This document shows positions 5,326 to 60,649 of a stretch of DNA of 64,000 bases, in pieces. A program made the position numbers and the translations under genes. This stretch comes from Naegleria gruberi (lineage: Eukaryota): the NCBI GenBank assembly GCA_000004985.1, contig GG738907.1; one strand, given 5' to 3'. Numbering within the stretch: the stretch's first letter is position 1; every line of letters starts with the position of its first letter. The notes under the pieces are model-generated. The model was given only the letters and a program-made list of their open reading frames with translations, did no database searches and was not told where the DNA came from.

Positions 5326-6800
5326 GTATTTTTTTGTGAATTTTTAAAGAGCCATCCTGTTGAAGTGGACATGATGAACGCATTAACGAATATGAATTCT
5401 TCATCATCATGTTTTGTTATTTATACTATGTTCATTACTAGTTGATGATGATGAAAATAAGCATGTGGAAATTCAATGAGCAAATTGTGTGTAAATTCCC
5501 AACGTCCGATTATTGAATAAAAATATTTTTGCCAATTAATTTTTACATCTCCACTAATTTGTGAAAATTTTCATTTTCAACATCTTTGGTAATAGTGTTG
5601 TTGATGTGAAGACATACGCAATTTTAGTTGCACAACAATAATGTAGGGAACACATGTGAATGTTCAACAACATATGAATGTGAATGATGGATGTAAAATT
5701 ACAGGTCAATAATATGATGAAGAGTTTCAATGAATATGCACATGGCACATGCAATTTTCAATGTTTGATGTAGAAAATAGTAGATGTACATGTGCAAGTC
5801 ATCTATCTAGCATTCACAAACACTACATTGTGTATGCCCAATTCTGATTTTCAAAGATTACATGTTGCACTTGTTGATGTTTGTTGGTGGTGAGCTTTGC
5901 AATTTTTGTTTCTGTTGATTATGGAGAAGATACAACAACGTTTGACGTTGTTGATTGGTCACTAGCTGTACTGTTATTTCTTCTTGGTGTTGTTGTATTT
6001 GTTTTCTATCCAAAAAAGGTAAAGTAAGGAACCCTCGTTAAATTTCAACAAACTTGTTCATCAAACATTTGATGCAGGCTGCTGCTGTTCATGGTTGTAT
6101 ACTTCCCTTTTTTCAACCATTCCTAAAGGTAATGTTCATAATTGGATACTCCTTAATTCAGATGAATTGTAGAAAAGCTTTACACATGCTGTGGAGTTGT
6201 TGAACTTTGTTGGGAAGAGACGAAACTTTGTGTGAATTTTTTTAAGGACGACAATTTCGTTTGTTTTGATGAGGTTTACTTGTGTGTTGTGTTATTTTGT
6301 TTGGTTGTTGTTGAGGTGTGGTGCGAAATTTATGGCCCATATTACACAATGCACATTAAAAGCAACTGCTGCTTTAATAACATCACACAAATAGATTGAA
6401 GATGACAACAACACTGTACTCAACGACAAATAGGCACAATACAACTCTATCCAAACAGTTTTAATGTGATATCAAGATGCTTCCGTACACATGATGATCA
6501 AGGTTCTTGTTTGTAGAAAATGTACATTTAAAGAAAATGTATATCTCTTCAATTGTAATGTGTGGTCTCACTTTAAATAGAAGCCATATCAATATGCGAT
6601 TTCTCGATACAATTAATATACAACCATGAGGAGAGATTCATTCATATTATACAAGGGTTTTATATTATCAATCTCCTCAGCTATAGATGATTGAGGAGGA
6701 GTTTTATTATAGTGAAGAGATTGAATCACAAAGCTCTTTTAAATTGATTTGTTCCTTATCTATTAGAGAAGAATATCGCCCTTAATCCAAGCAACAGTCA

Positions 6801-8546
6801 CTATCCTTTATTGAGGTAGAATGAGCAAGGAGATGAGCTATCAAACCAACCATCGCCATTAACACAAGCTCCATCGAAATGATTGGCAGAAACTCGGTAA
6901 TTTCTCGAATGATAATCCTCAGTGAATGAATCAAAATTTAACAAGTTTCTGCATGAGAACAATGGAACGGCTCCATCGTGTGTCCACTGATTCATTATTG
7001 GACTGAGTGCAGCCAAGGCCAAATTAAGAGGAGTAAATGGGTTCAATCCAGAACTTTTAGTTCCACACATGTATCCAGTAACATATTTGGAGATTAATGG
7101 TGAAATTTCATTCTTCAAAACATCCGAAGTGGTGAGAGATTGCAAAGCACTTGTTGGTTTACCATACTCCTCACACAACCCAATATCCACAGCATAACTT
7201 GAAAATCCACCCAGTGAGCACACCCTCACTCCAAAATCAGCCAATGGTGATCCAAGTATTGGTCCCATGATATTGTACCAGCTGGTTGACTTGACATCAA
7301 TTTCAATAAGTCCTCTGCTAATTGCTGCAGCAACCATGAGATTTCCCATAGAGTGAGCAAAGATGATGGTATTTCTAACAGTGTTGGTCTTGTTGGAAAT
7401 GAAATCTGGAACTAGAATTTTGCTGACTGCTAATTGTAAATCAAAATTGTCCCAACCTCTTGAGTTGGATTCTTCTCTCATGAAAATTCTCTCTGAACAG
7501 TAGGGTGTGTAATGGTCAATTTGACCCCAATACTCGCCATTTCTGAAAGCATTTGAAGAGTAAACTGGAAGACCTGAATGTTCTCTGCTCGTTCCGTATC
7601 TGTGAGTGATTTGCATTGAGGAATAGAAATTTCGAATAGTACTTACCCATGGAGAAACACGCATCTCTTCAAAGAATTTGTATTTCGTTTTGATTGGGTA
7701 GGTTGAGTTTTTACAATTGGACCCCTTCAACCATGGTAGAATGCAAGCATGTGAATCTTGATTAAGAAAATAAGCTGTGTGATGAGAAGTTTCTTTTAGA
7801 ATTCTTGTTGCTTTTCCAACAGTTTTAGAAACCTTATTTTTTGGAAACTTGTGATATTCATCCTTGAAAGATTCCACAATGGATTCTTTCATTCTTGCTG
7901 GAGCCAATTCATCAACCTTAGCTATGAATTCTCTTCCAACAATAAATCTTAAAGAACTAATATCTCTCTTTCCCTTTTTAATACAAAGTAGATAGTGCTG
8001 TTCATGAAAAGAGGAAACAACCAAATCATTTTCATGAAAATTACACAAATCATCAACAACTCTATCATAAATCTTGGTGTGATTCTTAATTATAAAGGAT
8101 TTGTTTTCATACGAGTTCATGATTAGATGGAAAGGAATGTCCATATCGATTTCTGGTAATGCTGAACAAGATTGTGAGTCTTTAAGACATGATTCGGAAG
8201 TGAATCGTTCCTTTGATGAATCGAAATAATGAGAAATTGTCATGTTCAACTTTTGGTCTCGAACTGTTGCTTTGGAATATATTTGATAAATATTGGAATC
8301 GTTTCTGATGATAAATCCATTCATAAAAACATTCATTCTGATTCCATGATTTCTTGGTTGTATTGAAAGTCTGAAATTTGAGAATTGAGGAAAATTCAAC
8401 CAATTTCCTTTGAGAGGAATAAAATCACCATCATTTCCAAATTTGTTAATATTTGGATTGGTAAGTTTTAATTCAAGACTTGAAACTGAATAACAGAGCA
8501 ATACAAGAAGAATAGTAACAAGACTGAAGGATAGATATTGATTCAT
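6801..8546 (-). CDS. secreted alpha/beta-hydrolase (lipase/acyltransferase-like, AHSMG nucleophile elbow)
   Basis: 581-aa ORF with an N-terminal signal peptide and a GxSxG-type motif (IIFAHSMGNLMVAAAI). An AAAAAAATG start context is present. Confidence 0.7.
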   Translation of the reverse strand: MNQYLSFSLVTILLVLLCYSVSSLELKLTNPNINKFGNDGDFIPLKGNWLNFPQFSNFRLSIQPRNHGIRMNVFMNGFIIRNDSNIYQIYSKATVRDQKLNMTISHYFDSSKERFTSESCLKDSQSCSALPEIDMDIPFHLIMNSYENKSFIIKNHTKIYDRVVDDLCNFHENDLVVSSFHEQHYLLCIKKGKRDISSLRFIVGREFIAKVDELAPARMKESIVESFKDEYHKFPKNKVSKTVGKATRILKETSHHTAYFLNQDSHACILPWLKGSNCKNSTYPIKTKYKFFEEMRVSPWVSTIRNFYSSMQITHRYGTSREHSGLPVYSSNAFRNGEYWGQIDHYTPYCSERIFMREESNSRGWDNFDLQLAVSKILVPDFISNKTNTVRNTIIFAHSMGNLMVAAAISRGLIEIDVKSTSWYNIMGPILGSPLADFGVRVCSLGGFSSYAVDIGLCEEYGKPTSALQSLTTSDVLKNEISPLISKYVTGYMCGTKSSGLNPFTPLNLALAALSPIMNQWTHDGAVPLFSCRNLLNFDSFTEDYHSRNYRVSANHFDGACVNGDGWFDSSSPCSFYLNKG

Positions 8547-26946: not shown

Positions 26947-28347
26947 TTACAAAACAGCAATCTTACCAACAAGAACTGCTGAATTGGTTGGTTCGTGGTG
27001 CAAAATAAAAGCAAATGGTCTATCCAAAACAAAATTAGAATCATCTTGTTCTCTTTCTTCAACAAGTTTGGCATTTTCTGGTGTGATTTCACCTTCAACA
27101 GTTCCTAATTCACTGAATTCAATAACAGTCTTGTGGAAAAACTCGTTTAATCTCCAGAATTCAGGGACTGTTGTTTCAGTTTGAGTTGGTGGTACTTCAA
27201 CAGGAGCAGTTTCATTGGTTTGAGTAGAGTTGACCTTCTTCTTCTTTGGTTCAACCTTTGGGAACAAGGAAGGTGCAGAAAATGTCTTGGCTCTCAATAA
27301 TCCAGAAATCTTGGACTTGGATTCAACTCTGAATTTTGGAATTGAAATCTTCTTGAAAAACTTTTCCTTAGTTGGGAATGAGCATGAAATACATCCAGAA
27401 TCCAATTGACGATTAACAAATCTATTAAATCTTTCTTCAGAATCACCATAAAGACTGAGAGCATCCTTTGGAACAATGAAAAGCATAGAATATGGAGCAT
27501 CCTTATATTTCAACTTGATCCATTGGAAGTTCTTTTGTTCTCCATGTTCAAATGATGAATTGTGTTGATTCATCATTTCAATTTCAATATATTCCACAAC
27601 ATCTTCATCAGCAGAGGAAATTACTCTGAACAATTCAATAGAAGTATCATTCAAATCGAATGGCTTTTCCCATTTTCCAACAAATAAACCAGTATCAGCA
27701 TAGATAGCTTGAGTAGCATTAGTAATAAAACCAGTTCCAATAAATGCAGTTGTTGTTTCATTATTCTTTTCAGAAATAATTCTATTCATCATCTTTCTAC
27801 TCTCATTAGCAGCTTCATCAGTTGTAAAATTACATGATTGAATAAGAAGATTCTTCATATAGAGATTATCCTTCTTAAAACCAGTCTTGGCAAGGAATTC
27901 CTCAGAGGCAAACAATGCAGGAGTCAAAATCAAACGTGCCTTTTCATCATTTAACATGTCAGTTTCATGTGAAAATTCAACAATTGATTGCATTGAATTC
28001 TTCAATTCACCCAAATTAAACTTGCTCAACAAGGTAGTCAATTCTCCTCTCTTTGGATCATCTTTTTCACATGCTTCCAAAATAACAGACAATGAATAAC
28101 CAAGTGAAATCGGAGAAAACATTACATTTTGAAAATGATCCATGATTGAATTGGTTATTAAATTACGCATAATTTTACCAGAAAGTTTAACATTTTCACT
28201 TCCAATTATTCTAGTTGGAGTTTCTAGATTTTCCACAATTGGAATGTTTGATTGTAAATTAATGTCAGCTTGAGATTTGATGCCAACAATTATACAACAA
28301 CAACATAGGAGGAAAAATGAGAGTTTGAGAGTAAATGATGTTGCCAT
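26947..28347 (-). CDS. serpin (serine protease inhibitor), secreted
   Basis: 466-aa ORF with a signal peptide and a reactive-centre-loop region, ending in the serpin signature FVLDRPFAFILHHEPTNSAVLVGKI. Confidence 0.8.
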   Translation of the reverse strand: MATSFTLKLSFFLLCCCCIIVGIKSQADINLQSNIPIVENLETPTRIIGSENVKLSGKIMRNLITNSIMDHFQNVMFSPISLGYSLSVILEACEKDDPKRGELTTLLSKFNLGELKNSMQSIVEFSHETDMLNDEKARLILTPALFASEEFLAKTGFKKDNLYMKNLLIQSCNFTTDEAANESRKMMNRIISEKNNETTTAFIGTGFITNATQAIYADTGLFVGKWEKPFDLNDTSIELFRVISSADEDVVEYIEIEMMNQHNSSFEHGEQKNFQWIKLKYKDAPYSMLFIVPKDALSLYGDSEERFNRFVNRQLDSGCISCSFPTKEKFFKKISIPKFRVESKSKISGLLRAKTFSAPSLFPKVEPKKKKVNSTQTNETAPVEVPPTQTETTVPEFWRLNEFFHKTVIEFSELGTVEGEITPENAKLVEEREQDDSNFVLDRPFAFILHHEPTNSAVLVGKIAVL

Positions 28348-28643: not shown

Positions 28644-29135
28644 CTATTCCATTTTATTCTCTTCAGAGTTTCCAATAAGCAGAAATCCAATTCTAAAGAA
28701 CATGCAAATGAAAGTGAGTGGAATTTGCAATCCCAAACTTGTAAATAAGGCTCCCTCCGTTATTAAAACACAAGAAACATGCAAAAAGTCTCCAATCAAT
28801 AACATTCGCATAGTAACCTTAAACAAATGACAATTTGACCATTTTTTATCTTCTTGACTCTGTCTCAATTGATCACAACCACACAGGAGAAGATAATGAA
28901 TACCACCAAATGCTATCATCAACATTCCGATAAATCTCATCAGAAATGAAGTGCCAACCCGGATTGATGAATCTTTCAATACTTGCTCTAATAATTGTTG
29001 GTTGACAAAGGAATTTAATAAGAGTGGATTGGTTGGGAATAGGAAGAGTAATAGTCCGAAGAAAACTTCGAACAGGAAGGGTTCGGTCCAGATGAACATG
29101 ATAAACCACTTCATAAACAAACTATCTTTGGCCAT
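28644..29135 (-). CDS. small multi-pass membrane protein, function unknown
   Basis: 163-aa ORF with ~4 hydrophobic segments and an AAAAAAATGGCC start context. Confidence 0.5.
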   Translation of the reverse strand: MAKDSLFMKWFIMFIWTEPFLFEVFFGLLLFLFPTNPLLLNSFVNQQLLEQVLKDSSIRVGTSFLMRFIGMLMIAFGGIHYLLLCGCDQLRQSQEDKKWSNCHLFKVTMRMLLIGDFLHVSCVLITEGALFTSLGLQIPLTFICMFFRIGFLLIGNSEENKME

Positions 29136-29207: not shown

Positions 29208-29528
29208 ATGAGTAAACGAGCAAGGCTTTATAATTTAGTAAATCATGATGATGATTTATCCACCTGCTCATCAAAAAACAATTATTATTATTCGGAGGAG
29301 AATCAATTGGATAGTAGATGTGTAAATTATTCATTAGATATTGGTAATGCATCGGAAGAGGAGTGTGATGGTAGTGCTACTGAAGATGATCACAATCCAT
29401 ATTTGGATAGTGATGATAATGAACAGGAGGAGGAGGAACAAGATTTGGAATATGACATTCCGTTAGCTTTAAGATGTGATATTCATATTTGTCAGGAAGA
29501 GGAGAAGAAACATTTGAATCATCATTGA
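29208..29528 (+). CDS. acidic N-terminal region, probably the 5' part of the Cys-rich repeat protein (joined via a frameshift) or an upstream ORF
   Basis: Strong AAAAAAATG start. The ORF overlaps the next one by 40 nt in another frame, and no GT-AG intron can join them. Confidence 0.35.
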   Translation: MSKRARLYNLVNHDDDLSTCSSKNNYYYSEENQLDSRCVNYSLDIGNASEEECDGSATEDDHNPYLDSDDNEQEEEEQDLEYDIPLALRCDIHICQEEEKKHLNHH

Positions 29529-30766
29529 AAAAACAGAAATTTAATCATAACAATTCTACTCTAAATATTTCAATTGATCATTTTAATAATAATTGCACTG
29601 ATCACTTTAGTGACAGTAGTGATAATTCAATTAATATAGAGGAGATTCAATATTCATATTTTAAGAAAACAGGAATTTATTTGAAAGAGACTAGACCTAG
29701 ACTGTATGCCATAAAACTTGGATCAATAATTGTAATGGAAAAAATTAATGGAAAACTTTATAATTGTGAGGAGAATTATATGGTGGCAAAAATTGGATCG
29801 ACAGAACAATTGAATGATAAAAGGATAGACAAATTAATTGGTGGATTAGATACTTTGGGTCTTGGCCCTGAGCTTATTGACACTAAAATTATTTTCCCAA
29901 AAGGCATATCTTTAGCAAAATGGGAAGGTGATTGGAGGAGAGAATTAGCTCTATACACATTCTCAAAAGAAGATATGTTAGAATTAGGATTGAATGATCG
30001 TCTTGGTCCTTCTGAATATATATTAACCTATAGAGATATCAATACTGATGTAACTATTCAGAAACCCAAAAGAGAATTACATTTATTCAAGTCAACTCAA
30101 CAGGGGAAAATTTTATGGAAAACTACAAAAAACAATCGACACCACAGAAGCAAATTGGTAGAACCTGAACGATCATGCTCTCAATGCAATGAACTAGTGC
30201 CCAATAGTCATTTAGTTAGATGTCACTCATGCTGCCAAACATTGTGCAATAAGTGCTGTCTTCAATGTGATTGTTGTGATAATTTTTTCTGCATTAATTC
30301 ATCATGCAGTACCAAATGCGACATATGTGATATTTTGTATTGTAGTAATTGTGTTCCAAAATGTGAAGTATGCCATGAATTTTGCTGCTCTGAACACTGT
30401 TCAAACATTCTACCATGTGAATGCGGATATATTTGCAAAGATTGTGATGTGAAAAAACCAAAATACTGTCAAGAATGTCAAATTCCACTCTGTTCCAAAT
30501 GCTCAGTAAGATGTAGTGGATGTAAGGCTCTAGGATGTAAGGATTGTATAGCTAAATGCTCAAAATGTTTGGAAAGATTCTGCCCCAACTGTGGTATTGA
30601 ATCCTGTTACATTTGTGGAAGGGAAGTTTGTAAACACAATTGTTCTGAAATGATTTCAGAATGTCATTCTTGTGGTAATGAATGTTGCCATGATTGCACA
30701 AGCAAATACATCAAAAAGACACGATCCAATAAGATGGAAAGAACATGTACTGAATGTAAAAGCTAG
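29489..30766 (+). CDS. cysteine-rich protein with ~9 tandem CxxC...CxxC repeats, function unknown
   Basis: 425-aa ORF. The C-terminal ~200 aa is a dense array of C-x2-C pairs (CSQC...CHSCC...CNKCC...CDIC...CSNC...CEVC...CKDC...CQEC...CSKC...CSGC...CKDC...CSKC...CPNC...CYIC...CHSC...CHDC...CTEC). Confidence 0.6.
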   Translation: MSGRGEETFESSLKKQKFNHNNSTLNISIDHFNNNCTDHFSDSSDNSINIEEIQYSYFKKTGIYLKETRPRLYAIKLGSIIVMEKINGKLYNCEENYMVAKIGSTEQLNDKRIDKLIGGLDTLGLGPELIDTKIIFPKGISLAKWEGDWRRELALYTFSKEDMLELGLNDRLGPSEYILTYRDINTDVTIQKPKRELHLFKSTQQGKILWKTTKNNRHHRSKLVEPERSCSQCNELVPNSHLVRCHSCCQTLCNKCCLQCDCCDNFFCINSSCSTKCDICDILYCSNCVPKCEVCHEFCCSEHCSNILPCECGYICKDCDVKKPKYCQECQIPLCSKCSVRCSGCKALGCKDCIAKCSKCLERFCPNCGIESCYICGREVCKHNCSEMISECHSCGNECCHDCTSKYIKKTRSNKMERTCTECKS

Positions 30767-31569: not shown

Positions 31570-34188
31570 TATCGTCGTTTCCCTTTCAAATTTTGTACTC
31601 ACATCATTTTGTTAGCATTGGTTACTGCCCAATTGTTCCTTTTTGCAGGTAATAGAGAAGATTACTTATCCAATGCTGGTAAAATTATTGCTAACAATTT
31701 CCTTCCTGAAGGATATCTATCAAGCAAGGATGCAAAGAATGGTTATAATACTTTTTATTTTGATAATTGTGCAGACATTGTTACACATATTGCTTGGACT
31801 GTTGGACAATATTATAGGTTGAAAGACAAGGCACCAACATATTTGGAATTAACAGGAAGAGATGGTCATGGTTCGTATTCTCTAAAACCACACGGAAATA
31901 CACCATTCATGACTGACAGAAAATCTAACAAATTCGGAGTGCAAAAATTATCAATTGGTCCAAGTGATAAACAACAATTACAGAATAGTATTAAGAAGCA
32001 ACTCTACTTGCAGGAGATTTTCGAAAAGAAGAAACTTGGAAGTGAGAGTGATGAGGACACTGCAGAAGTACCTGCAACTTTATCTCATGATGCAATTCCT
32101 AATCCTGTTGAAATGTTAATTTCACGTTATACTAATATGAGTTTACCAATTCAAAATTTCCAAAAGAAGCTTAATAAGGACACTACTAGTGATACCTTCT
32201 TTTTATCAGTCAATGATACATTTGGACCATTTACTCCATTTGTTGACCCAGACCAACCAAAGATTATTTCAGATCAAGAAGATGTCAAAATAATTGATCC
32301 AGAAGGTCTACAAAAGTACATACTCACATTCACAGAAATTACTCTCAAATTTACGTATAAGAATATTTTCACTCAAGGTACATTCCCAGAACTTTTAATT
32401 TGGGATATTGCTCTCAGTTATGATTTTTCAACAGGAGCTGGTGTCATTCCTGTAACTTTGAGATATGATGTTGGATTAGGTCTTGAAAATGAACAAGATT
32501 TTAATGCTGCTAACGTGTTATCCTCACCTCTAACTTGGATTTCAATCCTCATTATTGTCTTTGCTTTATTTTCACTTTTCTTGATATTCCGTGCCATTTA
32601 CAGATCCTTCAGATTTATTAAGAAGGCTATGAAAAAGGACAGAAGCATTTTCCAAATGATGCTTATGGAAAGCACTGACGATATGGATGAAACTGAACAA
32701 AAATCAGTCGATCTTCACAACAGTAGTGTTTTATCTGAAAGTACACCTCTTGTAGGCATTAATAATTCTTCTCCACAAACCAAACCAGTTGCAGTTAAGA
32801 ATGCTAAGAAGAGATTTGATGAAGAAATGAACGAAAGTTATGGAAGTGCTATTAGTGGTATGACTTTCACAAGTCAATACTATCAACATGTACTGGATAA
32901 GCACCAATCTGAATTACATCAATTACAAACACAAAAGGAGGAAGAAGAAGATTTTACACCATCAAAGAAAGTACATTTGCCAGGAATACCATTCAGAATT
33001 GTTACTGGAGAAATTGGAGTCCCAACCCCAGAACATATCATTGCAGCAAAGGCAGAACTCAGTCCTAACTTTACACCAAAACTCAAACACAAACTCAAAT
33101 TCTTCAATCCATGGCACGTACTTGGTATTATTTCAAATCTGTTTTGTATTGTTTCCAGTTGCATGGTTTTCACAAACGTTACCTATCAGTATTTCTCCTT
33201 GGATGCTACTAATATTTTGTTAGGTTTGAGTGCCATTTTCATGTGGGCCAATATTGTTCAATATCTCTCTCACAGTCCAAAGTTCTACGTTTTGATCAAG
33301 TCTTTGAGAAAGGGTCTTCCAAATATTGGTAGATTCATTATTGGTGCTGCACCATTGTTGATTGGTTATGCTCTTTGTGGTATGGTTTTGTTTGGTTCTT
33401 ACACTGAAAGTTTCCAAGGTTTCCAAAATTCTCTTATCACACTCTTCAGTGCTGCAAATGGTGACGCTTTGATTGATACTTTTAACTCATTATTTGGACA
33501 AAACTCAGTTATTGCCTACTTTTCAAGAATTTATCTTGTTACCTTTGTATGCCTCTTCACATACAGTGTTATTAACATCTTTATTCTTATCATGGAAGAC
33601 GCTTACTTTAGTGTTAAGGAAGCAAATATTAAGAAGGAAGCTGCAGAGGCTGCTGCTCAAGCCATCGAAGAATTCAAGAAGGGAGGAAAGGGAGGAGCAG
33701 GTTCTCAAAATCAACAAGGTGGAAATGAAAATGATACTCGTTCAGATTCTATGTTCAATGATGCTGGTTCATGGAAGAAAGGTGGTCAAAACGATGAGGA
33801 TGATGATGTTGAAAGATTACAGGATGAACGTTCCAAGATTGACGTCCTTATTAATTTACTCAGTGAATTGAGATCAGGACAATTATTAGGTGAAGGTGAA
33901 GAGCAAGATCCTCAAAATACTATCCAACAAAAGAATTTGAGTGAAAAACTTACAAGACTCTTGGTTAATAGAAACTTGAAGAAAATTAGAAGAAAGAAGA
34001 GTGACCCTTATATGAAGAGTGCTCTGAGTAGCTCTTTCAAAAAGTTTGAAGTTGGTAGCTTTGGAGAAAAGAAAAAGAAGGAAACTAAATTCAATTTGGA
34101 TCTCAATGAATCAATTGATGATGGCACTCTCATTGAAGTCTATGATGAAGATGATGAGATGGCATCTCCAACTCCTCCAAATCTCTAA
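31570..34188 (+). CDS. mcln: mucolipin (TRPML) cation channel, exon 2 (to stop)
   Basis: Acceptor TTCATAG. The exon encodes the pre-TM1 region, a large first luminal loop, and the TRPML pore/TM6 signature (FSAANGDALIDTF...IYLVTFVCLFTYSVINIFILIMEDAYF). Confidence 0.8.
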   Translation, partial: YRRFPFKFCTHIILLALVTAQLFLFAGNREDYLSNAGKIIANNFLPEGYLSSKDAKNGYNTFYFDNCADIVTHIAWTVGQYYRLKDKAPTYLELTGRDGHGSYSLKPHGNTPFMTDRKSNKFGVQKLSIGPSDKQQLQNSIKKQLYLQEIFEKKKLGSESDEDTAEVPATLSHDAIPNPVEMLISRYTNMSLPIQNFQKKLNKDTTSDTFFLSVNDTFGPFTPFVDPDQPKIISDQEDVKIIDPEGLQKYILTFTEITLKFTYKNIFTQGTFPELLIWDIALSYDFSTGAGVIPVTLRYDVGLGLENEQDFNAANVLSSPLTWISILIIVFALFSLFLIFRAIYRSFRFIKKAMKKDRSIFQMMLMESTDDMDETEQKSVDLHNSSVLSESTPLVGINNSSPQTKPVAVKNAKKRFDEEMNESYGSAISGMTFTSQYYQHVLDKHQSELHQLQTQKEEEEDFTPSKKVHLPGIPFRIVTGEIGVPTPEHIIAAKAELSPNFTPKLKHKLKFFNPWHVLGIISNLFCIVSSCMVFTNVTYQYFSLDATNILLGLSAIFMWANIVQYLSHSPKFYVLIKSLRKGLPNIGRFIIGAAPLLIGYALCGMVLFGSYTESFQGFQNSLITLFSAANGDALIDTFNSLFGQNSVIAYFSRIYLVTFVCLFTYSVINIFILIMEDAYFSVKEANIKKEAAEAAAQAIEEFKKGGKGGAGSQNQQGGNENDTRSDSMFNDAGSWKKGGQNDEDDDVERLQDERSKIDVLINLLSELRSGQLLGEGEEQDPQNTIQQKNLSEKLTRLLVNRNLKKIRRKKSDPYMKSALSSSFKKFEVGSFGEKKKKETKFNLDLNESIDDGTLIEVYDEDDEMASPTPPNL

Positions 34189-42014: not shown

Positions 42015-42095
42015 CGTTGAGGATGGGATTCGAACCCACGCGGATTTCTCCACCAACTTAGCAGGCTGGCGCCTTAACCACTCGGCCACCTCAAC
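42015..42095 (-). tRNA. tRNA-Ser(GCU)
   Basis: Reverse complement reads GTTGAGGTGGCCGAGTGGTTAAGGCGCCAGCCTGCTAAGTTGGTGGAGAAATCCGCGTGGGTTCGAATCCCATCCTCAAC. Anticodon loop is CTGCTAA with a long variable arm; a downstream T-run is present. Confidence 0.85.
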
Positions 42096-46055: not shown

Positions 46056-46126
46056 CTCGAGTGCCGGGAATTGAACCCGGGTCGCCAGAGTGACAGTCTG
46101 GAATGCTACCACTATACCACACCCGA
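46056..46126 (-). tRNA. tRNA-Asp(GUC)
   Basis: Reverse complement reads TCGGGTGTGGTATAGTGGTAGCATTCCAGACTGTCACTCTGGCGACCCGGGTTCAATTCCCGGCACTCGA(G). A downstream T-run is present. Confidence 0.85.
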
Positions 46127-60577: not shown

Positions 60578-60649
60578 GGGGACCAGTGGGAATCGAACCC
60601 ACGGCCTCTCGCACCCAAAGCTATAATCATACCACTAGACCATGGTCCC
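60578..60649 (-). tRNA. tRNA-Pro(UGG)-like (anticodon stem has two A-G mismatches; possibly a pseudogene)
   Basis: Reverse complement reads GGGACCATGGTCTAGTGGTATGATTATAGCTTTGGGTGCGAGAGGCCGTGGGTTCGATTCCCACTGGTCCCC. It is near-identical to eukaryotic tRNA-Pro(UGG) except that 27-31 is ATAGC where the human tRNA-Pro(UGG) sequence, recalled from memory, has CUCGC. Confidence 0.6.

Follow-up and report, generated by a model that had tools for sequence, protein, structure and literature searches.

The 64,000-nucleotide stretch of Naegleria gruberi DNA considered here (contig GG738907.1 of assembly GCA_000004985.1; hereafter the window) contains, at positions 29489-30766 of the plus strand, an open reading frame (ORF) that runs through a globular region into a long array of closely spaced cysteine pairs and that is overlapped at its 5' end by an acidic ORF in another frame. 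The locus raises the question of whether these are parts of a single real gene and, if so, what kind of protein it encodes. We favour, and give about an even chance to, the explanation that this is a genuine Naegleria gene for an intracellular protein composed of an acidic tail, a domain of about 140 amino acids and a poly-zinc module, whose database model is truncated at the 5' end and whose two frames are separated by an insertion or deletion (indel) of one nucleotide. We take the gene to be real because the 425-codon ORF is conserved in Naegleria fowleri with the same order of N-terminal domain and cysteine array.

A gene shared by two Naegleria species

The window as a whole is gene-dense eukaryotic DNA with a G+C content of 31-37%. 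The main ORF, in frame 2, has 425 open codons, the first of which is TTG, and is 100% identical to the N. gruberi 'predicted protein' NAEGRDRAFT_73733 / XP_002671176 (P0001; 343 amino acids). An exhaustive phmmer scan over 1.84 billion representative proteins gave six hits, the query itself among them. Two are N. fowleri proteins: P0002 (293 amino acids), aligned over query residues 59-316 (E 7e-11), and P0003, aligned in the N-terminal domain only (E 4e-6). P0003 corresponds to the annotated FDP41_009129, FDP41_009152 and FDP41_001436, and P0002 is the ORF of this N. fowleri locus read without splicing. Two further hits, P0005 and P0006, concern the cysteine array (E 1e-4 and 8e-4) and are described with it. 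The last, P0004, is a protein of 677 amino acids from the mussel Dreissena polymorpha made of seven near-identical repeats of about 85 amino acids; its match in the N-domain motif region is 17 residues long (CEENYMTARKGSSDQ, 65% identity) and was considered spurious.

A relative carrying the N-terminal domain and the cysteine array in the same order was thus returned only from N. fowleri among the proteins scanned. No others came from a word-indexed search (query only) or from a search seeded with the N. fowleri protein (N. fowleri only), and alignments of the N-terminal domain against viral contigs and metagenomes gave no relatives. Neither the locus tags nor the accessions turned up in any paper, and nothing relevant to cysteine-rich CXXC proteins of Naegleria was found in the literature. 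The original prediction, made from the letters of the DNA and its translated ORFs, had proposed Amoebozoa as the group to search; N. gruberi is a heterolobosean, within Discoba, and not an amoebozoan. As far as these searches go, a gene combining this domain with a cysteine array appears restricted to the genus Naegleria.

The N. fowleri gene could be read from the DNA as follows.

L004 (VFQX01000066.1) 6001-6029: exon 1, encoding MSDSSDDHD, from reading of the DNA
L004 6030-6080: intron 1, 51 nucleotides, GT-AG type (GTATGG…AATAG), which looks genuine
L004, after 6080 to 6981: exon 2 (unspliced ORF 6100-6981)

The resulting protein has 309 amino acids and consists of an acidic, serine-rich tail, the N-terminal domain and an array of 91 amino acids with 22 cysteines. 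The public N. fowleri model (272 amino acids; L004 6001-7072, and also on L003) places a second intron at about 6560-6762, which leads into a valine-rich alternative frame with loss of the cysteine array. Since N. gruberi lacks an open counterpart of this valine-rich frame, the cysteine frame is the conserved one, and by this comparison the three annotated N. fowleri models are spliced into the wrong frame.

N. fowleri contigs L003 and L004 have the same gene neighbours (OTU, mitochondrial carrier, RhoGAP, Abhydrolase_3, WS_DGAT_C and kinase genes), and because these neighbours are identical the two contigs are more suggestive of uncollapsed haplotigs or a duplicated segment than of transposed copies. 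The 13-kilobase N. fowleri locus and the N. gruberi window have only the present gene in common, without synteny.

The cysteine array

The array and its parts lie as follows in the N. gruberi window.

30176-30757, plus strand: cysteine-rich array (ORF residues 230-423), with 49 cysteines, 7 histidines and 19 C-x2-C motifs
30467-30592, plus strand: most regular core of the array (residues 327-368), six C-x2-C pairs with spacers of 4, 3, 4, 3 and 4 residues
30605-30757, plus strand: C-terminal module (residues 373-423) with cross-brace spacing of the FYVE/RING type, from the PDB match to 1hyi

A quarter of the array is cysteine (49 in 196 amino acids, 25%). All 17 of the CxxC motifs that had been listed for it are present and, with CLQC and CDCC, there are 19 when overlaps are counted. 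Shuffling of the residues gave 11.8±2.6 such motifs in N. gruberi (p=0.007) and 4.9±1.7 in N. fowleri, where 9 are observed (p=0.019); pairing exceeds the level due to cysteine richness alone, although only moderately. The pairs had been said to recur every 8-12 residues and are in fact spaced more tightly, every 7-8 residues in the core (residues 327-376), where spacers of 4 and 3 residues alternate. A unit of about 15 amino acids can be written as C-x2-C-x3-Φ-C-x2-C-x3, with a hydrophobic residue before the third cysteine, and is present in seven copies in N. gruberi and three in N. fowleri, the total number of cysteines (49 and 22) reflecting a roughly two-fold difference in array length. 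Adjacent CC pairs are also frequent in the array, CxC motifs occur in places, and no tandem repeat was found beneath it at the DNA level.

Neither the array nor the N-terminal domain belongs to a recognised family: searches of Pfam (E up to 10), PHROGs, NCBIfam, PADLOC and PDB sequences gave nothing significant, and no hidden Markov model (HMM) search assigned the repeats to a known family, as the original prediction had anticipated. Individual modules were compared with known patterns. The first (residues 230-256) reads C-x2-C-x11-C-x2-C-x4-C-x2-C and fits the first six ligands of the B-box (PF00643; pattern C-x2-[CH]-x7-12-C-x2-C-x4-C-x2-[CH]-x3-4-H-x4-9-H), without the two terminal histidines and without a Pfam match (E up to 10). 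The last reads C-x2-C-x15-C-x2-C-x4-C-x2-C-x16-C-x2-C (C373, C376, C392, C395, C400, C403, C420 and C423) and has the eight-cysteine cross-brace spacing of FYVE (PF01363) when aligned with the EEA1 ligands. The FYVE motifs for phosphatidylinositol 3-phosphate (WxxD, R(R/K)HHCR and RVC) are absent from this module, which has SECHSCG and ERTCTEC where FYVE domains have RRHHCRxCG and RVCxxC and which has no Pfam match. For the RING (C3HC4 or C4C4; pattern C-x2-C-x9-39-C-x1-3-H-x2-3-C-x2-C-x4-48-C-x2-C), there were sub-threshold PDB matches and no Pfam match. The cysteine-rich domain of DnaJ (four CxxCxGxG motifs) is also unlike the array, in which xGxG follows none of the 19 C-x2-C motifs and which has no Pfam match to it.

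The only PDB match of the whole protein was the FYVE domain of EEA1 (1hyi, E 0.8, residues 368-423), an alignment in which four C-x2-C pairs fall on the eight FYVE ligands. The C-terminal module was also the only region in which AlphaFold2 reached a predicted local distance difference test score (pLDDT) of 42-48. When a profile of the 30-residue double unit was made from N. gruberi, N. fowleri, P0005 and P0006 and compared with PDB, it gave eleven sub-threshold matches (E 0.3-7), all of them cross-brace fingers: the PHD-type finger of NSD1, the C4C4 finger of TFIIH p44, the RINGs of BRE1, TRIM39, PCGF6, TRAF3 and TRIM56 (E 0.5-7), and the FYVE-type fingers of EEA1, WDFY3 and Slp4.

All weak PDB matches (1hyi, 6w9n, 5x6t, 1z60, 2naa, 8ieg, 2ecj, 2djb, 2ecy and 5jw7) hence fall in one class of fingers, which includes FYVE, RING, PHD, B-box1 and the TFIIH p44 C4C4 finger and which has the central C-x2-C-x3-Φ-C-x2-C in common with the array. 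The first and last modules, moreover, have a spacing compatible with two interleaved zinc sites. Unlike canonical cross-brace fingers, the array has its approximately 24 ligand pairs head to tail, most of them without the long loops between pairs 1 and 2 and pairs 3 and 4; it is almost devoid of histidine ligands, lacks the FYVE motifs WxxD, RRHHCR and RVC, and gives no sign of RING-type E2 binding. The earlier view that the spacing does not resemble that of RING, PHD or B-box fingers accordingly holds in part only, the first and last modules being ordinary cross-brace arrangements; likewise, the protein is novel as an unclassified family and not as a new kind of metal site. Because C-x2-C pairing is in excess, the 15-residue unit is regular, a hydrophobic residue precedes the third cysteine and none of the weak PDB matches falls outside the cross-brace fingers, we consider a chain of zinc fingers the most likely form of the array. 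A more remote possibility is that it has a new, uninterrupted poly-zinc fold of the cross-brace kind.

Arrays of this type may not be confined to Naegleria. P0005 (322 amino acids) and P0006 (103 amino acids), both from Logan assemblies, match the N. gruberi array by BLASTP with E-values of 4e-13 and 4e-11, and are closer to it than is the N. fowleri array (E 0.002), a similarity from which we conclude that the array type is not unique to the genus. In both, the 15-residue unit stays in register with that of N. gruberi across 80-170 residues, and P0005 has a three-unit super-repeat with C-x2-C-x3-F-C-x2-H units. Unlike the Naegleria protein, they have no conserved N-terminal domain, and P0005 has more histidine ligands. 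Neither has a significant Pfam match, the best being Siva (E 0.001, for P0005) and FYVE_2 (E 0.03).

The N-terminal domain and its weak likeness to T5orf172 proteins

The globular part of the protein is delimited by its conservation.

29666-30088, plus strand: conserved N-terminal globular domain (ORF residues 60-200), from homology to N. fowleri
29780-29839, plus strand: most conserved motif of the domain, MVAKIGSTEQLNDKRIDKLI, which resembles the 'KIGxT-x5-R-x3-L' core of T5orf172/GIY-YIG proteins

The domain is 33% identical to its N. fowleri homologue over 141 amino acids (BLASTP, E 5e-18), and gave nothing significant against PDB when used as a profile. Its succession of LYAIKLG…MVAKIGSTEQLNDKRIDKL…E-x-D-W-R-x-x-L…SEY has what we took to be a motif order like that of T5orf172/GIY-YIG proteins, and the tests that followed did not establish membership. 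A profile was built from a T5orf172/MUG113 protein verified with Pfam (P0009, retrieved with a consensus-like query) and 12 phage or giant-virus relatives, to which 14 sequences were later added (13, then 27). The core elements compared were, in order, a G-x-[VI]-Y strand, KIGxT, the arginine of helix 1, E-x3-H and R/EFF. Both Naegleria species keep KIGxT-x5-R, and have E-x3-R in place of E-x3-H and EY in place of EFF.

These observations bear on a different explanation of the whole protein, namely that a nuclease of the GIY-YIG/T5orf172 type is joined to a variable array of zinc fingers that directs it. Nucleic acid would be cut by the N-terminal domain at targets selected by the array, and the gene would be selfish or defensive, possibly with a viral origin. 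With hhalign, the Naegleria pair aligned VAKIGSTEQ-x4-KR-x3-L with the KIGxT…R core of the 13-sequence profile (score 21.2, P 0.0039, a score reached by 0 of 200 column shuffles), at a probability of 8.6% that did not improve with 27 sequences (score 19.6, probability 6.0%), and the matched motif is short. An unfiltered hmmsearch with the 27-sequence HMM gave 9.0 bits for N. gruberi, not reached in 500 shuffles, and 4.8 bits for N. fowleri, reached by 7 of 500. A permissive alignment continues colinearly, with the conserved E-x3-[R] placed on the E-x3-H of T5orf172, whereas the first tyrosine strand stands 28-29 amino acids upstream of the KIG motif, about twice the norm of the family (~12). 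No match to the domain was found in either species with the Pfam models of T5orf172 and MUG113 (PF10544, PF13455) and of GIY-YIG (E up to 10), nor with T5orf172-type PHROGs (16524, 8430, 36333 and others).

Known proteins offer partial parallels. SLX1, a pan-eukaryotic structure-specific endonuclease, has an N-terminal GIY-YIG domain followed by a single C-terminal finger of the RING/PHD type, and the Naegleria protein would be similar in placing a possible domain of that type before a predicted cross-brace zinc module. It differs from SLX1, which is readily found by the Pfam GIY-YIG model, in not being matched by it, in having about 12 predicted fingers and in its apparent restriction to Naegleria. 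T5orf172 is a subfamily of GIY-YIG, and its phage homing endonucleases typically carry tandem zinc-finger repeats, CapR, DUF723 and DUF4397 (PMC10448857). The Naegleria protein resembles these phage enzymes in layout, with a small, putatively α/β domain carrying KIGxT…R and a repeated cysteine module of variable copy number (PMC10448857); it differs in its eukaryotic host, in an array that is not basic and in an N-terminal domain that the profile comparison did not place in the family (hhalign probability 6-9%), and as far as tested its array has no sequence relation to CapR or DUF723 (no Pfam match).

The regular presence of repeated zinc-finger DNA-binding domains in phage T5orf172 members, the absence of synteny between the two Naegleria species and the differing array lengths all speak for a nuclease, against which stand the net charge of the arrays (+2 and -2 in the two species) and the lack of relatives in viral contigs. 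On balance we hold a nuclease of this kind to be unlikely without being negligible. Its most specific form, a nuclear gene for a highly divergent eukaryotic GIY-YIG/T5orf172 nuclease with about 12 fast-evolving zinc fingers in an expandable array, acting as a selfish or antiviral nuclease in Naegleria and a counterpart of phage homing endonucleases, is a distinctly improbable proposal. The likeness of the N-terminal domain to T5orf172/GIY-YIG proteins is a weak one, a short motif of nominal significance, to be used as a lead only.

Two other resemblances of the N. fowleri protein were set aside. Its N-terminal domain matches phrog_12508 (E 0.019), a group that true T5orf172 proteins do not match, so that there is no transitive link. 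Residues 2-62 of the N. fowleri homologue (L004 ~6100-6285), ending at the KLY-x-x-x-IS strand, match SIRV1 gp29 / AcrIII-1 / DUF1874 (2x4i, 6scf; E 0.064); conservation with N. gruberi does not extend to this region, there is no Pfam support and the match is probably due to chance.

One gene in two reading frames

The 5' part of the N. gruberi gene, and its end, involve the following features.

29208-29528, plus strand: acidic upstream ORF (frame 0, ATG start, 106 amino acids, net charge -21)
29208-29509, plus strand: probable 5' coding part, an acidic N-terminal region of about 100 amino acids from ATG 29208, on codon usage
29337-29363, 29409-29435 and 29478-29504, plus strand: three copies of a 27-nucleotide direct repeat, from a repeat search of the window
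29489-29665, plus strand: low-complexity linker rich in N, S and D, without an ATG (ORF residues 1-59, frame 2)
about 29505-29525, plus strand: zone in which frame 0 gives way to frame 2, placed by the repeats, codon usage and the frame-0 stop
29735-29737, plus strand: start ATG of the database model, probably not the true start (P0001 begins MEKINGKL, at ORF residue 83)
30764-30766, plus strand: TAG stop codon

The database model begins at the earliest ATG in frame with the main ORF (29735, residue 83), frame 2 being without any ATG from 29480 to that point. Homology to N. fowleri begins upstream, at residue 59-60, and a start at Met83 removes a conserved strand, 'P-R-LYAIKLGSIIV', which aligns with 'P-K-LYIIKISSLEV' of N. 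fowleri; the linker (residues 1-59) aligns loosely with the N-terminal region of the N. fowleri protein. Because conservation extends upstream of Met83 and no in-frame ATG is available there, the database start is wrong, and this is a strong indication, from the comparison of the two sequences, that the NAEGRDRAFT_73733 model is truncated at its 5' end.

The missing part is most likely supplied by the acidic ORF, with the true gene beginning at ATG 29208. This ORF, which stays open for 106 codons in DNA of 31% G+C, does overlap the main one in another frame as had been reported, the two sharing 40 nucleotides; its 'perfect Kozak' context was overstated, as an A-rich leader and A at -3 are followed by A, not G, at +4. 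On codon usage, real genes in the window score 0.35±0.18 in their own frame and -0.44±0.31 out of it; the acidic ORF scores 0.02-0.35 in frame 0, against -0.5 to -1.4 in the two remaining frames. Beyond about 29480, codon usage is better in frame 2, and it is gene-like in the main ORF downstream. The three copies of the 27-nucleotide repeat, spaced by 72 and 69 nucleotides, all start in register with the codons of frame 0 and encode acidic peptides (DIGNASEEE, SDDNEQEEE and DIHICQEEE), the third copy lying within the overlap of the two frames. Frame 2 is open from 29480, and frame 0 ends at TGA 29526-29528. Codon usage, the in-frame repeats and this stop together leave about 29505-29525 as the place of the frame switch, a zone too short for an intron.

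Adding one base, for example in the run of three A at 29507-29509, gives a single ORF of 519 amino acids. One larger gene with a one-nucleotide indel at 29505-29525 is the simplest reading and the one we favour, and the suggestion of a single frameshifted gene, already part of the original prediction, is now backed by the start of homology, codon usage, the 27-nucleotide repeats and the acidic N-terminus in N. fowleri. The indel would be an error of the assembly or else a mutation that the sequenced strain really carries.

Other ways of joining the frames were considered. GT-AG introns can be drawn in many combinations, none of them compelling: with CAG at 29495, which is the best acceptor, and a donor at 29344 or 29410, the intron would remove sequence that looks coding (29344-29495 scores 0.35 in frame 0), and a 20-nucleotide GT…AG at 29476-29495 makes a stop codon. 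Programmed -1 frameshifting was rejected, there being no slippery heptamer before the frame-0 stop. A metagenome DNA scan gave no match to the frameshift region.

Were the indel a real mutation, the locus could be a recent pseudogene of the sequenced N. gruberi strain that makes no full-length protein. We rate this as rather improbable. The parts do occupy separate frames that no short intron joins well, residue 83 has no ATG in frame ahead of it, and the family evolves fast and was not found outside Naegleria; the 425-codon frame is nevertheless intact, including all 49 cysteine codons, its codon usage is that of a gene, and a single miscall in a homopolymer accounts for the shift equally well.

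Proposed function of the protein

No signal peptide, transmembrane segment or hydrophobic segment was found in the protein of either Naegleria species, and both N-termini are acidic, from which we infer a reducing, intracellular setting in which the cysteines would serve as metal ligands. Under the explanation favoured here, about 24 ligand pairs (C-x2-C or C-x2-H) would chelate about 12 Zn(II), and the array would consist of a succession of interleaved treble-clef (cross-brace) fingers, like those of the RING, FYVE, PHD and B-box classes, ending in a C4C4 module with FYVE/RING-like spacing. Such a chain could behave as a rigid rod stabilised by zinc and may act as a binding scaffold, for proteins more probably than for nucleic acid because the net charge of the array is near 0. 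The rod might then position the N-terminal domain, which is conserved and which we would guess to be the effector part, and the number of fingers would vary between Naegleria species.

Several results weigh against this explanation. Between the two species the arrays align poorly (E 0.002), no zinc-finger HMM is significant, and the PDB matches of the array are all weak (E 0.3-7). AlphaFold2 gave a mean pLDDT of 33.6 for the array (alignment of two sequences) and 33.9 for the N-terminal domain (three sequences). A GT-AG intron, for example at 29344-29495 or 29410-29495, could also join the two frames.

The array might alternatively be a metallothionein-like store or buffer of Zn, Cu or Cd without discrete fingers, as its 25% cysteine over 196 amino acids, its adjacent CC pairs and occasional CxC, and its variable length between species would allow. 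Metallothioneins are small proteins with about 30% cysteine in CxC, CC and CxxC clusters and with few aromatic or hydrophobic residues. We think this reading very unlikely, given the regular 15-residue unit, the conserved hydrophobic and aromatic positions, an ordinary diversity of residues, the C-terminal cross-brace module, the fusion to a conserved globular domain and the lack of a match to any metallothionein family. Protist surface proteins typically carry dense CxxC arrays, and yet a secreted or surface disulfide-rich repeat protein (of the type of the Giardia variant-specific surface proteins (VSP), ciliate surface antigens or furin-like proteins) is scarcely credible here, with neither signal peptide nor transmembrane segment in the two species, acidic N-termini, a hydrophobic residue before the third cysteine as in zinc fingers, and no match (E up to 10) to the Pfam models for VSP, furin-like, GCC2_GCC3, EGF or Paramecium_SA repeats.

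Genomic neighbourhood

Within the window, the gene has no flanking terminal repeats and no paralogues that would indicate a mobile-element context. Its immediate upstream neighbours, both on the minus strand, are a serpin gene (26947-28347, Pfam E 1e-34) and a hydrophobic ORF of 163 amino acids without a family match (28644-29135). Downstream, on the plus strand, an ORF of 859 amino acids (31609-34188) matches polycystin/ion-transport channel domains (PKD_channel, E 1e-10); as it starts at TTG, its 5' exon is probably upstream. Three tRNA genes are present, all on the minus strand: Ser-GCT (42015-42095), Asp-GTC (46056-46126) and Pro-TGG (60578-60649).

Significance for Naegleria

The present value of the analysis lies mainly in annotation and in the generation of hypotheses. 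The gene models of two species are corrected, NAEGRDRAFT_73733 in N. gruberi and FDP41_009129, FDP41_009152 and FDP41_001436 in N. fowleri, and a small Naegleria-restricted family is defined that is unclassified and has an unusually dense and regular CxxC array. If this array is a true chain of uninterrupted interleaved zinc sites, it would be a useful structural example of concatenated cross-brace fingers. If the N-terminal domain is a true GIY-YIG-type nuclease, the gene would be a rare eukaryotic analogue of the phage homing endonucleases and, being present in the pathogen N. fowleri as well, also a marker specific to the genus.

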